Positions 23,359-36,566 of a stretch of 36,681 nt of DNA are shown here, piece by piece. Positions within the stretch are counted from its first letter, which is position 1; each line of letters starts with the position of its first letter. The stretch is from a virus (taxonomy: Duplodnaviria > Caudoviricetes), in IMG/VR virus record IMGVR_UViG_3300020151_002519, positions 1 through 36,681 of that record, one strand, 5' to 3'. The notes under the pieces were generated by a model that was given only the letters and a program-made list of their open reading frames with translations, was not told the DNA's origin and made no database searches. Position numbers and translations under genes: made by a program.

Positions 23359-23417
23359 GGCGAACGTCCGCTGCGCCAAACTTCGCCAAGGCTCAGTTGG
23401 CGAGCTCTTTGTTCGTC
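23359..23417 (+). mobile_element. attC-like site B (59 bp)
   Basis: GGCGAAC..GCT(G)CGCCA(A)ACT..AGTTGGCGAGC..GTTCGTC; same family as sites A and C with a compensatory base-pair change. Confidence 0.6.
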
Positions 23418-25826: not shown

Positions 25827-26429
25827 CTACGATGGAGATGTCAATTCCGGCGCGAGCGTGGTGCGCGCGTCGTGATGATAAAAATGCAGAACGTGCGGGA
25901 TGTGATGCGCCTGCGTGACGTGCATGCGCGCCTGCTTCACCCAAACCGCATCCTCGCCGTAATTCGTATCGAGGAATTGGCAGTGCGCGATGCGATCACG
26001 CCGCCACGCGCAGACGTGCCATGGGCCGCGGATGAGCTCTTGATCATCGGGACCGTCGATCTGCAGGTGCTGATCGGAGGCACCGTGCTGGAAGGTGACG
26101 TTGAAGGGCTTGCCATTGTAAGTGGCGCGCTGCTCGAAGGTGATGACGTGGGCCTCGGGGTGCTTCTCGATGGCCTTGAGCAGTGCGGGCACGTAGTTGG
26201 CACTCACGGCATCATCGTCATCGACGAAGGCGATGTATTGACCGCGCGCGGCATCGAGTAGCGCCTGACGTTTCAGGCCGACGCTGCGGTGGCGGTTGTC
26301 GTAGAGCACGAGGTGCTCCACGGCCCATGGCGGCGAGATCTGCGCGGCGATGTGCTGCACCAGGTCTTGGCATTGCTTGACGCGTTCCCAGCAGGCCGGG
26401 GTGAGGATGGAGAGGAGAGGTGGTTTCAT
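25827..26429 (-). CDS. GT2-family glycosyltransferase
   Basis: LSILTP, G.KRQALLDAARGQYIAFVDDDD, GED motifs. Confidence 0.9.
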   Translation of the reverse strand: MKPPLLSILTPACWERVKQCQDLVQHIAAQISPPWAVEHLVLYDNRHRSVGLKRQALLDAARGQYIAFVDDDDAVSANYVPALLKAIEKHPEAHVITFEQRATYNGKPFNVTFQHGASDQHLQIDGPDDQELIRGPWHVCAWRRDRIAHCQFLDTNYGEDAVWVKQARMHVTQAHHIPHVLHFYHHDARTTLAPELTSPS

Positions 26430-28126
26430 GCAGGTTTGCGGGGTGAGATGCCGGTGAGTTCTTCGAAGATGGCTGCGCCTTGTTGGTAGCGCTCGGTGCT
26501 GTTGTGGACGGCATACACTTCGTCCCAGCCTTTGCCTTCGTTGAAGAACGGATGATGGTGCTCGATGACGATGTGGGAGGCGTCGATGACGATGCCGTCG
26601 CGGTAGGCGATCCAGGAGTGGTAGTCGTCACTGAAGACGCTCTTGAAACGCGGATGGAGGAAGAATCCCTGCTGCGCGTAGCGGGCGCGGTTCATGACGG
26701 CGATGCAGAGCAGGTCATCGGTGCGGTGACCATCGGAGACGCGGAGGACGGCGGGTTTGCCAGGCTCCTCGGCGCAGGTGAAGGCTTCCTCGATCAGTTT
26801 ATCCCAGTGCATGGGCGGCTCGAAGTCGTCGTTGATCTGGACGAGGATCTCACCGCAGGAGGCGGCGGCGGCGAGGTTCCACGCGCCGACGCTGGCTCCT
26901 TCCTTGTTGGTTTGGATGACGTGGCGATAGACGCAGAGCGGGAGACTGTCGCCATCGTCGAAATCGATGGCGAAGAGGTGCTCCACGCGATCGGGATGCG
27001 CGGCGCGGTTCAGCCACTGGCGGCGGGCATCGGCGGCGAGCTTTGGACGGCCGCGCGTGGCATGCAGGAGGCTGATGACGGGATGCGGCTGGGCTTTGAG
27101 ATGATTGATCTCGCGCACATCGGCCTCGGGGAAGCGTCCATTGGCGCGGAGGGCCATGGCGTGGAGCTGGATGCCGAGCCAGCCGTAGTATTTGCCGCGG
27201 CGATTCCAGATGTATTCCGGCGGATCGCTGAGGCCGTGCATGGCCTCGGCATAGGCGAGGGCTCCGCGCGGATCGGCGAGGCGGAGCTTGGTGTTGACCA
27301 TCTCGCCATAGGCCTCGCGGCGGTAGGGGACGGCGTTGAGAGCTTGCAGGAGGTATTGCTCCTGCGCTTTGGGATTCGTGGCGACTTGCGCGATGTTGAT
27401 CATGAGCTCGTAGCCTTCCTCGGGGCCGATGTCCGGATGCTTGAGGGCTTGCTGCGCGATCTGCACGCCTTCTTCAATGCGTCCGACGAAACGGAGGCTT
27501 TGCCAGAGGTGGAAGAGGTGCGAGAGCGTGCGCTCGGCGGGCGGGATGCTTTCGAGGATGCGCAGGTTGCGTTCGTTGTTCGGCGTGCGGTCTTTGTGCG
27601 TGGCGTGGTGCCACTCCGGAGCGTCCTGGACGATCACGCGCGGCTTTTCCATGTTCACCTTGAAGCTCTCATGGATAGGCGAAACCCACGCGCCGGAATC
27701 GCGGCGCAGGATGCGCTCGCGCAGGACGCGGAGCTGATCCTCCGGCACGACGTAGGGCAGGGTGACGACGTCGGGGCGCTCCTCGGCTATGCGTTTGCGC
27801 AGCGCCTGCCATTGCTCCAGCGTGCCGCCATAGACATCGTCGGTGTCTGCCCAGGCAATGTAGTGGCCGGTGGCGAGCTTGAAGGCGAGATTGCGCGCGG
27901 CGGCGAAGTCATCGACGTGCGGCCAATCGTGCTCCGGTTTGTTGCGGTAGGACGCGCAGACGCAGCCACGCGCCTCGGCGATGTCGAGCGTGGCATCGGG
28001 CGTTTGGTTGCCGATGGCGCGCACGACGATGATCTCATCGAAGAGCGGCTGGAAGGAGTCGAGAAAGCGCGGCATCCAGTGCTCCACGTTTCCGGCGATG
28101 ATGGCGAGGCTGATTTTCATGGACAT
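26426..28126 (-). CDS. Glycosyltransferase GT2-TPR-GT2
   Basis: DFAAARN..WADTDD..IHE N-terminal GT2; central TPR-like helices (PYRREAY); second GT-A domain ISLLHATRGRP..INDDF. Confidence 0.88.
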   Translation of the reverse strand: MSMKISLAIIAGNVEHWMPRFLDSFQPLFDEIIVVRAIGNQTPDATLDIAEARGCVCASYRNKPEHDWPHVDDFAAARNLAFKLATGHYIAWADTDDVYGGTLEQWQALRKRIAEERPDVVTLPYVVPEDQLRVLRERILRRDSGAWVSPIHESFKVNMEKPRVIVQDAPEWHHATHKDRTPNNERNLRILESIPPAERTLSHLFHLWQSLRFVGRIEEGVQIAQQALKHPDIGPEEGYELMINIAQVATNPKAQEQYLLQALNAVPYRREAYGEMVNTKLRLADPRGALAYAEAMHGLSDPPEYIWNRRGKYYGWLGIQLHAMALRANGRFPEADVREINHLKAQPHPVISLLHATRGRPKLAADARRQWLNRAAHPDRVEHLFAIDFDDGDSLPLCVYRHVIQTNKEGASVGAWNLAAAASCGEILVQINDDFEPPMHWDKLIEEAFTCAEEPGKPAVLRVSDGHRTDDLLCIAVMNRARYAQQGFFLHPRFKSVFSDDYHSWIAYRDGIVIDASHIVIEHHHPFFNEGKGWDEVYAVHNSTERYQQGAAIFEELTGISPRKPA

Positions 28127-30323: not shown

Positions 30324-30368
30324 GATAACCGCAGAGATGAGGCTTTGAAGAATTTCTCTGCGGTTATC
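30324..30368. repeat. 14-bp inverted repeat (REP/terminator-like)
   Basis: GATAACCGCAGAGA..TCTCTGCGGTTATC at the edge of the low-GC island. Confidence 0.7.
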
Positions 30369-30584
30369 TTAAGTTTTAGCCTTTTTCAACGGTAGTGCGG
30401 CGCGGCCTGGTCCTATGTTAAATTCACCACACCAGTCCGTAGCCACAACACGCGGCCATCCCTCATCATTTCGAGGAGCATAGCGATGACAACGACCATG
30501 CCAAGGCACACCCTTTTCAGCCCGTGGAAATTCTCCGGCGTCCATGTATTTGCAGTCGTGACAGGTTGGAAGAATGTTTTTCAT
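30369..30584 (-). CDS. Small Cys-rich hypothetical protein
   Basis: CHDCKY..GRCHRYAP..WP.V...DWCGEF; low GC. Confidence 0.7.
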   Translation of the reverse strand: MKNILPTCHDCKYMDAGEFPRAEKGVPWHGRCHRYAPRNDEGWPRVVATDWCGEFNIGPGRAALPLKKAKT

Positions 30585-30593
30585 GTTATAGCC

Positions 30594-31121
30594 TTATTTT
30601 TTCCACCAGTTAGCAGGATCGTCTTTTTCTCGCCGGGATGCTTCTTCATTGTCCCAAATTGAATCACGATAACGAGACTTGCTTTCTTTCTTTTTATCTG
30701 CACCTGCCACACGATCGTGATTTAAAAAGGGGAACCGTTTTTCTTTTAATTTTCGAAGATCGCCAGACTCCCATTCATTTGCCGCGATTTGAGCGATTCG
30801 CTCTGCAAGTGTTCCTGACACGCAAGGTGCCACGTTTAAAATGTGGCAAAATGTGGCCCCAAAGCGGCAGGCTGAAAGGGTTCGGCTGTATTCCCTGGCG
30901 GCTGCAACTACTTGACGCATGCCGCTTTCCGTCAGCATGTTGTATCGAGATGGATATTGAACATTTTTCCAATACTCTCCCATGTGCATGGAAACAATGT
31001 GACGAGTTTTCAGAAACTCAACCCTCACATAAGGAATGGGATTTTCGCGAGACCATGGAAAAATCACATCTTTCCATGATTGGTCGATAAACACCGGCAC
31101 TTGGAACTTTTTTTCAGGCAT
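30594..31121 (-). CDS. Hypothetical protein (low-GC insertion)
   Basis: ATG 4 nt after the portal stop; AT-rich codons. Confidence 0.6.
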   Translation of the reverse strand: MPEKKFQVPVFIDQSWKDVIFPWSRENPIPYVRVEFLKTRHIVSMHMGEYWKNVQYPSRYNMLTESGMRQVVAAAREYSRTLSACRFGATFCHILNVAPCVSGTLAERIAQIAANEWESGDLRKLKEKRFPFLNHDRVAGADKKKESKSRYRDSIWDNEEASRREKDDPANWWKK

Positions 31122-31125
31122 ACAT

Positions 31126-32729: not shown

Positions 32730-33074
32730 TCAGATGCGGTCGAGAACTTCAGCGGGGGCGCAGCCGGAGCCGAAACGGATGCCGAAGGGACGGGAGAGGG
32801 ACTTGGCGACATCGCCGGCGATTTCGCTTTCGACTTCCTCGATGGCGCGTTGCAGGGCCATGCGGCGCTGATCGGGCGAGGAGTCCCGGAACTGCGCGGA
32901 ATGCGAGGAGCCAGCGAAGGAGGTGGCGGTGATCTCCGCGCCGCTGCGGTCCTCGGCGAGGAGCAGGTATTGCTCGGTGAGCCATTTGAGCTGCTCACTT
33001 TGATCGCCGGGGTGCAGAATCCGCGCGTGGAATCGGTAGTCGGATGTCAGGTCTGCGATATTGACGGCGGGCAT
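32730..33074 (-). CDS. Head completion protein (gpW position)
   Basis: 114 aa between terminase and portal; SFAGSSHSAQF then a helix. Confidence 0.55.
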   Translation of the reverse strand: MPAVNIADLTSDYRFHARILHPGDQSEQLKWLTEQYLLLAEDRSGAEITATSFAGSSHSAQFRDSSPDQRRMALQRAIEEVESEIAGDVAKSLSRPFGIRFGSGCAPAEVLDRI

Positions 33075-33100
33075 GACGGCGCGGTCATGTCAAAAAACGC

Positions 33101-33159
33101 GGCGAACGTGCGCTGCGCCGAACTGAGCTAGGGCTCAGTCGGCGAGCTGGGTGTTCGTC
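33101..33159 (+). mobile_element. attC-like site C (59 bp)
   Basis: R'' GGCGAAC, L'' GCT(G)CGCCG(A)ACTGAGC, L' GCTCAGTCGGCGAGC, R' GTTCGTC. Confidence 0.8.
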
Positions 33160-33713
33160 TTATGAAATGCCACCCAGTGAGTCTGCGCTTTCTTGCCGCT
33201 CCGGTGGCCGTAGAGAGGGCGTTCTGGCGTGAGCGCCAGCACTTCGCGGAGCGGGATTTCCGCCTCGCACCATTTGAAGATCATCGTTCCATTCACCTTC
33301 AGGACACGGAAGCATTCAGCGAATCCCGCCCGCAGGTCGTCGCGCCATGTCGCATCCAGCAGTCCGAAATCGAAGGCGATGCGTCCCGTTGCCCCCGCTC
33401 CTTTGTGGAAGTGCGGCGGATCGAATACCACATGCCAGAACGTCTCGTCAGGGAACGGCATGTTTCGGAAATCCGCCACCATGTCAGGCGCAACGGTTTT
33501 CGGCGTGCGTCCGATTGTGCCGGGAGTTCCAACGTCTATGATTCGCGTCCCCTCCCGCTTGTCCACATAGAGGGCGCGGGCGTCCTGCTTATCGAACCAG
33601 AACATGCGAGTAGAGCAGCACGCATCCAAGACCGGAGGCAAAGACGAACAAGGCGCTGCATGGAACGCCGAGGAGCGTCCTTCTTGAAGCGGAGATTTAG
33701 GGTCGGCGTCCAT
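33135..33713 (-). CDS. Class I SAM-dependent (probable DNA adenine) methyltransferase, cassette 1
   Basis: LDACC..RMFWFDK, VVFDPPH, ECFRVLK..G..IFKW. Confidence 0.85.
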   Translation of the reverse strand: MDADPKSPLQEGRSSAFHAAPCSSLPPVLDACCSTRMFWFDKQDARALYVDKREGTRIIDVGTPGTIGRTPKTVAPDMVADFRNMPFPDETFWHVVFDPPHFHKGAGATGRIAFDFGLLDATWRDDLRAGFAECFRVLKVNGTMIFKWCEAEIPLREVLALTPERPLYGHRSGKKAQTHWVAFHKTNTQLAD

Positions 33714-33729
33714 GAGCTATGCGTTCCCC
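33643..33729 (+). mobile_element. attC-like site D (87 bp)
   Basis: GACGAAC-AAGGC-GCT(G)CATGG(A)ACGCCGA..TCGGCGTCCATGAGC-TATGC-GTTCCCC. Confidence 0.85.
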
Positions 33730-33992
33730 TTTGTGAATTTGAAGCCATCGATGAACAGCATGAGGAAACCAGCCTTGGCGTCGAAGTCGTCTCTCTGCTT
33801 TTGGTTCCACTGTGCTCGCGGCCCATACCAGCCTTCGTGGTATTCGATGAGCCATGAAACCATCGCAGACATTTTATCGGCCCTCGAAGGAGAACACGGC
33901 ACGGCAGCTAACCCCATAGGGCCATCTGTCGCAGGTCGAGAGTCTGCCGCTTCGGCGGCGGGTGCTGGTAGTGGTGAGTCCATCGTGGTCAT
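33717..33992 (-). CDS. Hypothetical protein, cassette 2
   Basis: 91 aa; N-terminal third encoded by attC-E. Confidence 0.55.
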   Translation of the reverse strand: MTTMDSPLPAPAAEAADSRPATDGPMGLAAVPCSPSRADKMSAMVSWLIEYHEGWYGPRAQWNQKQRDDFDAKAGFLMLFIDGFKFTKGNA

Positions 33993-34025
33993 GCCCTATG
34001 GGGTTGCTGCGTTTGGTCGTTCGCC
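33889..34025 (+). mobile_element. attC-like site E (137 bp)
   Basis: GGAGAAC-ACGGC-ACG(G)CAGC(T)AACCCCATAGGGC..GCCCTATGGGGTTGCTGCGT-TTGGTC-GTTCGCC. Confidence 0.85.
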
Positions 34026-34026
34026 G

Positions 34027-35868
34027 TCAAAACTTTACGATGCCGCCGGCGCGGAGGATTTGTGAGTGGAGGAGGGCGAGTTTGCCGCAGTCGCCTTGGT
34101 GGTCGTTGAGGATTTCTTTCCATCGGCCGGTTTGGCGGTCTTTGGTTTGATTGGTGAAGCCGGTCAAAAGATGTGAATCGGCATCGGTGGGGAAGATGAT
34201 GCGCGGTCCGCGCCGGCGCTGGATGCGGCGGCCATACATTTCGTCTTTGAGCTCGGTGTCGGAGTAGGTGTAGAGCTCGAGCTCGGAGCGGTTGCGCGAG
34301 GCGGCGCGGGTGACATTCCAGCCGCGTTTCGCGGTGGGGTCGCCTTTGGATGGCCAGAGGAAACCTCGCGACGCTTGGCAAATGTCGTAGATCTCCTCGG
34401 TGTTCCAGCCGGAATCGACGATGCCAGAGATGGGCACCATGGTGTCCATGGTGCCGGCGAGCGGGAAGCGGAGGGATCGGAGGAAGTCGGGATCGAGTAA
34501 GGCTTTTTCACTGGCGAGGCGGCCCCACTGGATGGCCATGAGATCGCCGTTTGGCATGAGTGCCCACACGGCCCAGTCGGTGGCGCGTTCGCCGGGGTCG
34601 GCGTAGAGGCCGAGGTGCAAGGGGCGCGTGGGGATGACGCCGCGGGCGTATTTGTCGGTGCCGCTGCCTTCGGCTCCGGCGATGCAGTCGTTGACGTGTT
34701 TGTCGCCGATCTTGAAGGCGTAGATGGACCAGGGCAGGGCGAGCCAGGAGTTGTAGAAGTTTTGCAGGCCGGTGGTGAGGAGGTCGCCTTTTTCGAGGAA
34801 CTCCTTGGCCATGTCGCCAAAGCTGACTTTGGGCGCGTAGAAGGACGGGATGCGGAAGCTGCGGTCGCTGAGGAGCGCGTTCGGATTGTGGTGGACGGCT
34901 TGCAGTTTGGAGAGCATGCCGGGCTTGTCGTCGTCGTGGATCTCGCACCCGTTCTTTGGGCAGATGTAGCGGATGGTTTCGCGGACGCGTGGGATGTCCC
35001 ATGAGCCATCGGCGCGGCGGGCATCGGGGCTCCAGACGAGGGAACGGTAGTGCTCGGAAACGGCGCGCTCCTGCTCTTCCTCGAGCGTGGTTTCCATCTC
35101 GTCCTCGGGAACGGTTTCGCCGTTTTTGCGGATCTCGAACTCAAACGGGAAGAAGTGCCCGCAGTGAGGGCAGGGGACGTGGAAGTGGGTCTGCGTGCCG
35201 CGCAGGTAGGTGAGCCACGCGAGGTGATTGGGCGTGTTCGGCGTGAAATCCATCATCTGCAGCTCGAGGCCGCGGAATTCCTTGGTGCGCTCGAAGGCGA
35301 GCTTGATGGGGTGCGCTTCGGGTGCCTGGTCGCGCTCGTGGTGGACGATCTTGGCGGCTTCGCAGATGTAAACGATGCGCTGGGTGCTGCCGCTGGTGGA
35401 GGTGTCGGAATTGATGCCCTCGAAGACGATGAATCCGCCGCTCATCTGCATGGCGAGTTTGCGGAAGTTGTGCGCGTCGAAGGGCTTGTGGATGCGCAGG
35501 CAGTGGTTTGCCTCGATGAGCGCGGCAAGTCGCTTGTCGCTGATTTCGACGCGGAGCCAGTCTTCGGAGTTGCCGAGGATCAGCGTGGGGCCGGGGGCGT
35601 GCGGAATGCGGTAGGCCAGAATGAGGATGCAGCAGGTCGTTTTGCCGGTCTGCGAGCCGCCGGTGACGGTGAGGGAGCGGACGCCGCTCTGAGGATGCCC
35701 ACACGCCAAAATTTCGCGCATATACGGGCGGCGCTCGGTGCTGAATGGTCCCGGCGAGGCGGGAGCCATCGCGGCGGGCAGGACGAGATTCGACTCGGCC
35801 CAGTCCACGACGGGCGGATCGGTGGTGAATTGGAAATCCCCGCGGACGATGTCGGCGATCAGGCTCAT
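34027..35868 (-). CDS. terL: Terminase large subunit, lambda gpA family
   Basis: PGPFSTERRPYMREI, GSQTGKT Walker A, HVPCPHCG, LQNFYNSWLALPW, VDSG; ATGA overlap with terS. Confidence 0.93.
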   Translation of the reverse strand: MSLIADIVRGDFQFTTDPPVVDWAESNLVLPAAMAPASPGPFSTERRPYMREILACGHPQSGVRSLTVTGGSQTGKTTCCILILAYRIPHAPGPTLILGNSEDWLRVEISDKRLAALIEANHCLRIHKPFDAHNFRKLAMQMSGGFIVFEGINSDTSTSGSTQRIVYICEAAKIVHHERDQAPEAHPIKLAFERTKEFRGLELQMMDFTPNTPNHLAWLTYLRGTQTHFHVPCPHCGHFFPFEFEIRKNGETVPEDEMETTLEEEQERAVSEHYRSLVWSPDARRADGSWDIPRVRETIRYICPKNGCEIHDDDKPGMLSKLQAVHHNPNALLSDRSFRIPSFYAPKVSFGDMAKEFLEKGDLLTTGLQNFYNSWLALPWSIYAFKIGDKHVNDCIAGAEGSGTDKYARGVIPTRPLHLGLYADPGERATDWAVWALMPNGDLMAIQWGRLASEKALLDPDFLRSLRFPLAGTMDTMVPISGIVDSGWNTEEIYDICQASRGFLWPSKGDPTAKRGWNVTRAASRNRSELELYTYSDTELKDEMYGRRIQRRRGPRIIFPTDADSHLLTGFTNQTKDRQTGRWKEILNDHQGDCGKLALLHSQILRAGGIVKF

Positions 35869-36566
35869 GCGGATTTCAGCGAGGGGGCAAGACCGGCGAG
35901 GCCTTCGAGCATGCGTTCCACGGCGGGCATGAATCGCTGTGTGAGCCACTGCTGCGCACCGGCGATGGCTTGCTGCTGATTGCCGGGATTGACGAGTGGC
36001 GCGAGCTCGGGTGGGGCGTTGCGCATCAGCGAGGTGACCGGCAGGAGGAACTCGGAGCGGAACGCGTGGAATTCATTGACCGGGATCAGTCGGCGGGCGT
36101 CGATTTGCCACGCCTGGTGCTTGGCGAGCGCGTCGTTGTAGGCTTTGCGGAGATCGATGAGGATCTTGGCGTGCATGAGCATCATCGGGTGGTCTGCCGT
36201 GATTGGTTTGCCCATGCGATCGACGCCTCCACCGCGGCAGGCGTTCCACTGCCGGTAATGCTCGCGCCACATCGTCCAGGCGGCTTTGAGCATGCGGCCG
36301 GTCTCGGACAGGTTTTCGTCGTCGATGCCGACTTCCGGCGGCGCGGCCGGCGGCCCAAGAGTGGACATTGGCGCATCCACCGGCAAAGGGGCGACATCGA
36401 CGGGTGCCTTAACCATGGCATCCCCGACTACCCCACGCGTGAACCGCTGGAAGTCATCGGAGTTTTGCGCCGCATGCCGCTGAGCCGTGCGGACAGTTGC
36501 CCCGATGCTCTCGGCGTAAGCCTTGATCACCGCAGCAGACCATCCATGTGTTGCAGTCCTTCCCAT
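35865..36566 (-). CDS. terS: Terminase small subunit (putative)
   Basis: N-terminal HTH-like AYAESIGATVRTAQRH; coiled coil and LIPV motif; directly upstream of terL. Confidence 0.7.
   Translation of the reverse strand: MGRTATHGWSAAVIKAYAESIGATVRTAQRHAAQNSDDFQRFTRGVVGDAMVKAPVDVAPLPVDAPMSTLGPPAAPPEVGIDDENLSETGRMLKAAWTMWREHYRQWNACRGGGVDRMGKPITADHPMMLMHAKILIDLRKAYNDALAKHQAWQIDARRLIPVNEFHAFRSEFLLPVTSLMRNAPPELAPLVNPGNQQQAIAGAQQWLTQRFMPAVERMLEGLAGLAPSLKSA

Follow-up and report, generated by a model that had tools for sequence, protein, structure and literature searches.

A two-cassette integron-type array in a phage genome, probably with its genes on the attC bottom strand and a short resident hairpin as its likely entry site

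Integrons are seen as bacterial devices in which cassettes must face away from attI and attC hairpins hinder translation. In canonical integrons, attC sites have AAC/GTT boxes, matched R boxes and unpaired bases opposite the cleaved AAC, crossover takes place at the bottom-strand AAC, and the newest cassette lies beside the entry site (PMC2727003; PMC5027507). Two unpaired bases, usually G then T on the bottom strand and 6 bp apart, are located on the R''-L'' arm, the arm that bears them defines the bottom strand, and the described L''-R'' spacer measures 5-6 nt (PMC5027507), while the shape of the spacer influences recombination efficiency in model sites (PMC2727003). Integrase-less attC arrays (CALINs) with DNA methyltransferase cargo were described in phage genomes by Qi et al. 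2023, and five of six phage attC sites recombined with IntI1 (PMC9892861). The helper reading frames ORF-11, ORF-17 and ORF-18 in attI1, together with short attC ORFs, aid translation of the next cassette and encode short top-strand peptides at the first position (PMC8876359). IntI can also place cassettes outside of integrons, at attG sites that are short, double-stranded and scattered (bioRxiv 10.1101/2022.09.11.507474).

The window analyzed here, from a freshwater phage, is the whole viral record IMGVR_UViG_3300020151_002519 (36,681 nt), which is estimated to be 64% complete, and an integrase elsewhere in the genome is possible. Its minus strand carries the terminase, portal, protease and capsid genes. 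Between terL and a 114-aa gene lies what is read here, with a probability of roughly 0.7, as a two-cassette integron-type array whose genes occupy the bottom strand. Its base would be a short hairpin resident in the phage (the dock), which is likely the entry site in place of attI and likely served by an integron integrase of the host (Table 1). No PHROG or Pfam match was found for the 114-aa gene, and "gpW" is a positional label from an earlier note on this sequence.

The locus shares attC-bounded single-gene cassettes, methyltransferase cargo and the lack of a detected integrase with the phage CALINs, while the available text on these (PMC9892861) contains no bottom-strand genes, shared frame, starts within attC or resident entry site. 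The TJE1 array from that study is in normal orientation according to our detector, unlike the present one. The box architecture, the arm of the unpaired bases, the matched R boxes, bottom-strand AAC crossover and newest-cassette position are those of canonical integrons; unlike in these, the genes occupy the bottom strand and point at the entry site, each attC precedes its gene and extends into it, and instead of attI, Pc and intI there is a hairpin with a 4-nt spacer. As with the ORF-11 type of attI1 (PMC8876359), a frame runs over the crossover point, ends at a stop provided by the newly joined unit and is probably coupled to the start that follows, but here it is the cargo genes that span every junction, all in one bottom-strand frame. 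Insertion at attG sites is a possible origin of the dock, which differs from these sites in being one folded site reused by many cassettes. Bottom-strand, frame-locked cassettes or hairpin docks were not found in print in a literature search that covered few subscription papers, and an annotated phage collection held no similar array DNA, with matches to methyltransferase cores only. The window adds a series of empty, dock-only and filled junctions and a terminal class of sites with a 4-nt spacer.

Table 1. Features of the window, followed by the IntI-like genes of two other viral records
Feature	Position	Strand	Basis or remark
terL, terminase large subunit	34027..35949	-	PHROG 15, E 2e-63; start codon provisional; stop TGA 34027-34029
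TTTTGAC, upstream copy of the 7-nt direct repeat flanking dock and array; contains the terL stop	34026..34032	-	sequence
attC-like site E	33889..34025	top strand +	R'' 33889-33895, R' 34019-34025
Cassette 2, site E and ORF91 body	33724..34019		296 bp from one presumed crossover point to the other
ORF91, 91 aa, no known family	33717..33992	-	first 33 residues attC-encoded; stop within D
attC-like site D	33643..33729	+	R'' 33643-33649, R' 33723-33729; TAG CTC ATG junction
Cassette 1, site D and methyltransferase body	33154..33723		570 bp; R boxes 7/7
Phage DNA-methyltransferase-family protein (MTase), 192 aa	33135..33713	-	PHROG 954, E 3e-60; 23-residue attC-encoded leader
Dock, 59-nt attC-like hairpin resident in the phage	33101..33159	+	4-nt L''-R'' spacer; R' box 33153-33159
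Downstream copy of the TTTTGAC repeat, with the TTGACA-N13-ATG expression signal ahead of the next gene	33072..33095	-	sequence motif
114-aa conserved gene preceding portal ("gpW-like"), start 33074	32730..33074	-	conserved in relatives
Second dock-type hairpin	23359..23417	+, same orientation as dock	empty in window; between two tail-region genes
TTGAC(A/T)-N13-start motifs before seven genes	33093, 30291, 25738, 25358, 18005, 15608, 15173	-	sequence
Divergent IntI-like genes	L274:1447-2415 (G154), L275:1459-2424 (G150)	co-directional with arrays	322 and 321 aa

Three hairpins of attC architecture, the dock and sites D and E, were identified between terL and the 114-aa gene. They scored 14.5, 16.0 and 17.0, respectively, and the second dock-type hairpin 10.9, with a calibrated detector that gave two hits of at least 10 and one of at least 11 in 196,186 shuffled bases (both strands). 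The attC calls come from this detector of our own, which still misses degenerate sites (e.g., L015) and makes false calls in AT-rich DNA (P12002L). Folding z-scores were -5.45 for the dock, -3.34 for E and -1.32 for D, so that D is unexceptional by folding energy alone. On the minus strand, which is the coding strand, the unpaired bases are found in the 3' arm, and by the published rule this strand is the bottom strand. For the TJE1 sites, whose genes are on the top strand, the published polarity was reproduced by our detector. The cassettes are thus inverted, as the earlier note had proposed, with both ORFs on the attC bottom strand and the first ATG and the stop of each within hairpins. Its positions were also confirmed (ATG 33992 and 33713, TAG 33717-33719 and TGA 33135-33137 on the minus strand), as was the stop-start junction of site D.

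Sites D and E have AAC/GTT core boxes, L boxes and an unpaired central spacer (5/5 nt in D, 6/5 nt in E). The position of their unpaired bases fits attC, with the letters C and T in D (G 33658 and A 33665 on the top strand) and C and A, 4 bp apart, in E. The pair C and T is also the common one in host arrays, the chromosomal integrons of Verrucomicrobiaceae, whose genes face the normal way. R-box complementarity was 7/7 for the methyltransferase cassette, 6/7 for the ORF91 cassette and 7/7 between the outer box of the dock and the last box. Empty and filled relatives and contig breakpoints place the crossover at the bottom-strand AAC, at the resolution of the R box rather than the exact bond. 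The dock has a 4-nt spacer and is never followed by a cassette of its own; from its sequence, it behaves like an att site, yet is not a canonical attC. Both genes are on the bottom strand and do not form canonical gene cassettes, with a top-strand gene upstream of its attC, and the window holds no complete integron, with intI beside attI and Pc. With at least two nearby attC sites by our detector and no neighboring intI, the array is a CALIN.

The minus-strand ORFs are real genes, as indicated by the PHROG 954 match and mostly synonymous natural variation. Among the best-supported variants from other samples, 14 of 18 were synonymous in the methyltransferase, while 3 of 18 were synonymous in an opposite-strand ORF of 231 aa; for ORF91, 9 of the 12 best-supported variants listed were synonymous. 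Two opposite-strand candidates, both in canonical orientation, were rejected: the ORF at 33162-33857 had no Pfam match and mostly non-synonymous variants, and the 117-aa ORF at 33712-34065 had no Pfam match, no homologue and a stop gained in a variant.

The similar leaders pointed out earlier (AVPCS and AAPCS) are present and are the translation of the shared L''-R'' arm. That they are encoded by attC is supported by the methyltransferase homologues, which do not align before LPP/FPP. A start at the downstream TTG of LPPV, named beforehand as the case against such leaders, is disfavored: the codon is TTT in a natural variant, homologues have F in 25 and L in 24 cases at this position, and it is not conserved as a start. 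The next ATG (Met37) falls after the conserved LDACC motif. Leader length among the 114 of 120 homologues with the core motif was at most 10 residues in 38 and at least 18 in 65, and an Asn two residues past the last conserved Lys occurred in 44 of 68 long-leader and 12 of 38 short-leader homologues. The tail NTQLAD and the stop of the methyltransferase are supplied by the dock. By eye and from the proteins only, leader end and tail resemble translated complementary R boxes in several homologues (P0001-P0120), as in the pairs CYA with KHN, VLP with KQN and VMP with KA-stop. Closely related methyltransferases bear different leaders, which may reflect an exchange of attC sites or the formation of cassettes on repeated occasions. 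Two phages of the published CALIN set, MW202573 (L504:2640-3186) and P12002L (L503 near 30057), also appear to have their methyltransferase genes on the attC bottom strand, judging from an LLGFPP leader, a KPN tail and a published bottom strand that is the gene strand; our detector called no site at either gene. The MW202573 enzyme belongs to the same family as the present one, with the same kind of leader and the KPN tail.

The start of ORF91 at 33992 reads ATA in contigs of two runs, in which the in-frame TGA there is changed to TAA, so the gene may start at the second in-site ATG, 33983. In the coding strand of site E, an AAC-frame TGA overlaps ATG 33992 (ATGA). Further ATGs lie beyond the hairpin (Met41 and Met44); one homologue was called from there, and a start at Met41, outside of the hairpin, is possible. 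ORF91 crosses D, reading AAC as Asn, and terminates in D. Its 14 homologues comprise 10 that share only the site E leader, on about eight unrelated bodies, and four that share the body and diverge after KEN. One homologue, P0123, lacks, without a shift of frame, the part of the leader that corresponds to the 3' arm of attC, and is possibly a domesticated cassette retaining its in-site start.

The terL junction was compared in 32 rows, the window and 31 terL relatives, several of which are identical. No hairpin was present in 14 rows, the dock alone in three, and the dock with at least one cassette in 15. Ten of the hairpin-less rows have a gap of 12-60 nt and four have inserts lacking a detected attC (L014, L123, L124 and L137); these inserts mark the junction as a general insertion hotspot upstream of the TTGACA signal. 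The TTTTGAC repeat is present as a single copy in hairpin-less relatives, and rows L015-L021 have the second dock type. In the filled rows, the dock remains at the 3' end and incoming DNA joins at its AAC, within the R' box 33153-33159; the dock holds stops in two frames. A terL-side cassette is common to L005, L006, L007 and L010, which differ next to the dock only, so that the unit is the hairpin followed by the gene in reading direction, opposite to the order in a textbook cassette, and new units likely enter at the dock.

In other samples, each cassette occurs on contigs beside different neighbors, with breaks at 33153, 33723 and 34017-34025. Contigs of RNA runs contained only about 5-6% of the sequence words, and X15 covered the flanks only. 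Pieces of the cassette 2 unit end at 33723 and near 34023, and cassette 1 has a different neighbor beyond 33153. A joint of 33155 to 34017 in X4 has unknown letters in between and is no proof of an empty site. The second dock is empty in the window and in L003, absent in L008, and filled in L213, where other DNA is joined at its AAC. In the terL tree (L126, L127 and L138 excluded), docks occur in two separate clades, one of which includes a dock-less member; the tree leaves the order of dock gain and loss unfixed.

Among 126 distinct phage sites with a matched neighbor, 10 from five families span only 46-55 nt from AAC to GTT. The L''-R'' spacer of these is 4 nt instead of 5, all 10 are array-terminal, and nine precede TTGACA. 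The 4-nt register was absent from all 85 cassette-owning and all 42 host sites, while one long site at a contig edge has it. The five terminal families are unrelated and share the short length, the one-base-shorter spacer and a covarying pair. In a pattern scan, hairpin-forming loci among the matches listed were 21 of 105 for the 4-nt spacer and 0 of 121 for the 5-nt spacer, with patterns designed from the docks of this phage and most of the 21 hits belonging to its own group. The 21 represent 13 distinct hairpins, all with an AAC-frame stop and six with a matched cassette upstream. Docks thus seem to form a separate class of short sites whose spacer is 4 nt. It is plausible that they act as special acceptors, since spacer shape affects recombination of model sites; activity of IntI on the dock is not assured, because the first unpaired base of the dock is C instead of the usual G and its spacer falls outside of 5-6 nt.

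The shared reading frame was assessed on cassettes with 7/7 matching R boxes and a body of up to 900 nt, taken from the window and from viral and metagenome loci. These were 84 phage cassettes (80 after de-duplication; the set is enriched by a D-family pattern, 57 loci) and 29 host cassettes. Frame tests were used because longest-ORF counts (75 vs 24 of 101) are ambiguous in GC-rich DNA. In 68 of 80 phage and 3 of 29 host cassettes, a bottom-strand frame stayed open for at least 95% of the body; for the top strand, the counts were 35 and 13, respectively. Of 79 genes with a long open 3' frame, 11 stop at the R box and 68 read through; AAC is read as Asn in 64 of the latter, and 67 stop within the next site. 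Without the 26 stops at +6, which stem from the D family and the second dock type, read-through in the AAC frame was 38 of 42, while the host bottom-strand control gave 11, 8 and 5.

Site statistics were based on one site per family with D-like sites removed. An in-frame ATG was present within the own site in 38 of 51 families (25 of 102 in the other frames) and lacking in 13. An AAC-frame stop lay within -8 to +4 nt of the in-site ATG in 22 of 38 families, compared to 3 and 3 in the other frames, and the remaining 16 had no stop at this distance. The overlap was exactly ATGA in 16 families, and ATGA starts had the TGA in the AAC frame in 18 of 23 (p 1e-5). Site D is one member of a widespread site family. 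For 19 of 22 different genes behind sites of this family, the in-site ATG matches the frame of the body, even though its distance to R'' falls in all three frames. Host attC sites have an AAC-frame stop in 11 of 14 families (8 and 6 in the other frames), so part of the pattern predates its use by phages. Shine-Dalgarno-like words were found at 2 of 38 in-site starts; the ATGs are preceded by A/C-rich (70%) stretches resembling those before core phage genes, and the ATG of D is predicted to be paired in an mRNA stem. By a crude measure, flanking genes were co-oriented in 20 cases and opposite in 7, with one tie, on each side.

Within the window, only site D has a tight stop-start junction (3 nt): the terL stop lies 34 nt ahead of the first ORF91 ATG and the methyltransferase stop 60 nt ahead of the gpW-like ATG. 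Stops adjacent to starts, as in termination-reinitiation, were accordingly found at D and in 22 of 38 families, not at the terL-ORF91 and MTase-gpW junctions. The earlier note had regarded attC as a translational coupling module that lets any captured cassette be expressed without breaking a terL-gpW-portal operon. Across related phages, the module is favored by the enrichment of AAC-frame stops beside the own ATG; in the window, it would apply at D and not at the two outer junctions. "Any" cassette is too strong, with 16 of 38 families having no close stop, 13 of 51 no in-site ATG, and 11 of 79 genes a stop of their own. Preservation of the operon by coupling found no support, since the gpW-like gene has its own TTGACA-N13 signal and, in four relatives, the terL junction accommodates inserts other than attC cassettes. 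TTGACA-N13-ATG precedes the gpW-like gene in all 18 dock-bearing rows and in 26 of 32 rows overall, and every insert sits upstream of it. TTGAC(A/T)-N13-start occurs seven times on the coding strand of the window, with 0.43 expected, and not on the other strand. As a promoter or initiation signal, it likely frees the downstream genes from the array.

The tyrosine recombinase model PF00589 matched nothing in the window or in G001, a complete relative, and the recombinases tested from G002 and G004 did not match the IntI model. Relatives of terL occur in two MAGs, one Prosthecobacter and one Verrucomicrobiaceae, both of which have an IntI above the cut-off; the host assignment is based on these two MAG contigs. 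An IntI above the cut-off was present in 54 of 145 Verrucomicrobiaceae genomes. Host arrays share R boxes, unpaired bases and some site families with the phage, and their genes are on the top strand (28 of 33, longest ORF). The host IntI is therefore the likely enzyme for the phage array. In two of five other array-bearing viral records, a gene for a divergent IntI-like protein (E 2e-65 and 4e-59, in both cases below the family cut-off) immediately follows the 3' end of a reversed array on the same strand, a place occupied by the dock in the present phage.

The array may accordingly work as follows. The mobile unit is a hairpin followed by the gene body in reading direction, as seen in empty and filled relatives. 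By the statistics above, a gene body usually lacks its own stop and crosses the next site, reading the invariant AAC as Asn, and that hairpin supplies its last residues and stop. Most units keep an ATG inside their own hairpin, with the incoming stop at or next to it in over half of the families. Ribosomes finishing one cassette would likely melt the hairpin and restart on the next gene; this coupling would link cassette to cassette, while the downstream structural gene is likely insulated by its own TTGACA-N13-ATG and not by coupling. Orphan phage methyltransferases protect phage DNA from restriction, and the methyltransferase cargo would likely shield this phage in the same way. More tentatively, and at somewhat less than even odds, Verrucomicrobia phages would run a virus-native integron format of backward cassettes, Asn-ending genes, stop-restart attC loops and one-way 4-nt-spacer acceptors, served by host IntI, in which the acceptor hairpins sit just before late-gene start signals and replace attI.

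It is extremely improbable that the hairpins amount to terminator-like or chance inverted repeats beside ordinary morons. Although 22 of 200 shuffles fold as well as site D and non-attC inserts occur at the same junction, the reading is already contradicted by the empty and filled series with its exact junctions, and it also fails to fit the detector scores, the matching R boxes and the reuse of sites with other genes. If the cassettes are real and reversed, the stop-start pairs could still be a by-product: host-type attC arms happen to spell an AAC-frame stop, genes in that frame survive, and each cassette starts independently, without coupling, from an A/C-rich region in its own loop. This would agree with the AAC-frame stops of host families, the 16 phage families without a close pair, the A/C-rich stretches like those of core phage genes, and ORF91, which follows terL by 34 nt without a coupling partner. 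It appears quite unlikely, as independent initiation does not predict ATGA in the AAC frame in 18 of 23 families, and the 22 close pairs against 3 and 3 and the predicted pairing of the D ATG also speak against it.

The nature of the dock and the source of the recombinase leave room for two further explanations, both unlikely. The dock may be no specialized acceptor but what is left, in degenerate form, of the attC of an old cassette that had entered at a secondary, attG-like site. Later cassettes would then use it since it is present, or would arrive through homologous recombination among related phages. Secondary GWT sites do receive cassettes through IntI (bioRxiv 10.1101/2022.09.11.507474), the R' box of the dock overlaps or abuts the terL stop in L008 and L015-L021, a 7-nt repeat flanks the dock, and L009 of the same clade has no dock. 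Against a leftover stand the joining of different cassettes exactly at the AAC and the short length and shorter spacer shared by five unrelated terminal families and absent in cassette-owning and host sites. The recombinase, in turn, could be a divergent IntI of co-infecting phages or of the missing genome part, which would make this a virus-to-virus system. The IntI-like genes 3' of the array in two of five other viral records point this way, while the lack of such a gene in the window and G001, the failure of the tested G002 and G004 recombinases against the IntI model, and the R boxes, unpaired bases and site families shared by phage and host sites argue for the enzyme of the host.

The array built on a dock suggests that phages have a plug-and-play gene-capture system of their own, a version of the bacterial one in which the same sites serve in opposite orientation and inside proteins. 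With swap sites inside proteins, recombination site and coding sequence would be under joint selection. The 59-nt acceptor with its natural empty-to-filled series offers a direct assay for attI-free integration. The arrangement would account for the differing extensions at the N- and C-termini of many small phage proteins, which gene callers should watch for. Methyltransferase cargo points to a rapid route of counter-defense, mirroring anti-phage cassettes in hosts. Many different attC leaders occur on closely related phage methyltransferases, so that ordinary phage genes appear to be turned into cassettes repeatedly; the same gene body with many attC ends is material for studying cassette genesis and, if this is true, the old question of cassette creation is reopened.

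Several other observations concern further genes of the window. A low-GC insert (47-55%) between portal and protease, at 30324-31124, holds two ORFs of about 176 and 71 aa and, at 30324-30368, a perfect 14-bp inverted repeat, with no attC called in the insert; the longer ORF has a 42% homologue at the same place in L013. A 566-aa two-domain glycosyltransferase at 26426-28126 directly follows the major capsid gene and is conserved in relatives. The head module is mosaic: compared to the window, L002 and L003 have a terL that is 98% identical but a gpW-like gene that is only 55-61% identical, and in L001 and L002 the protease is 34-40% identical, which points to gene swaps beside the dock.
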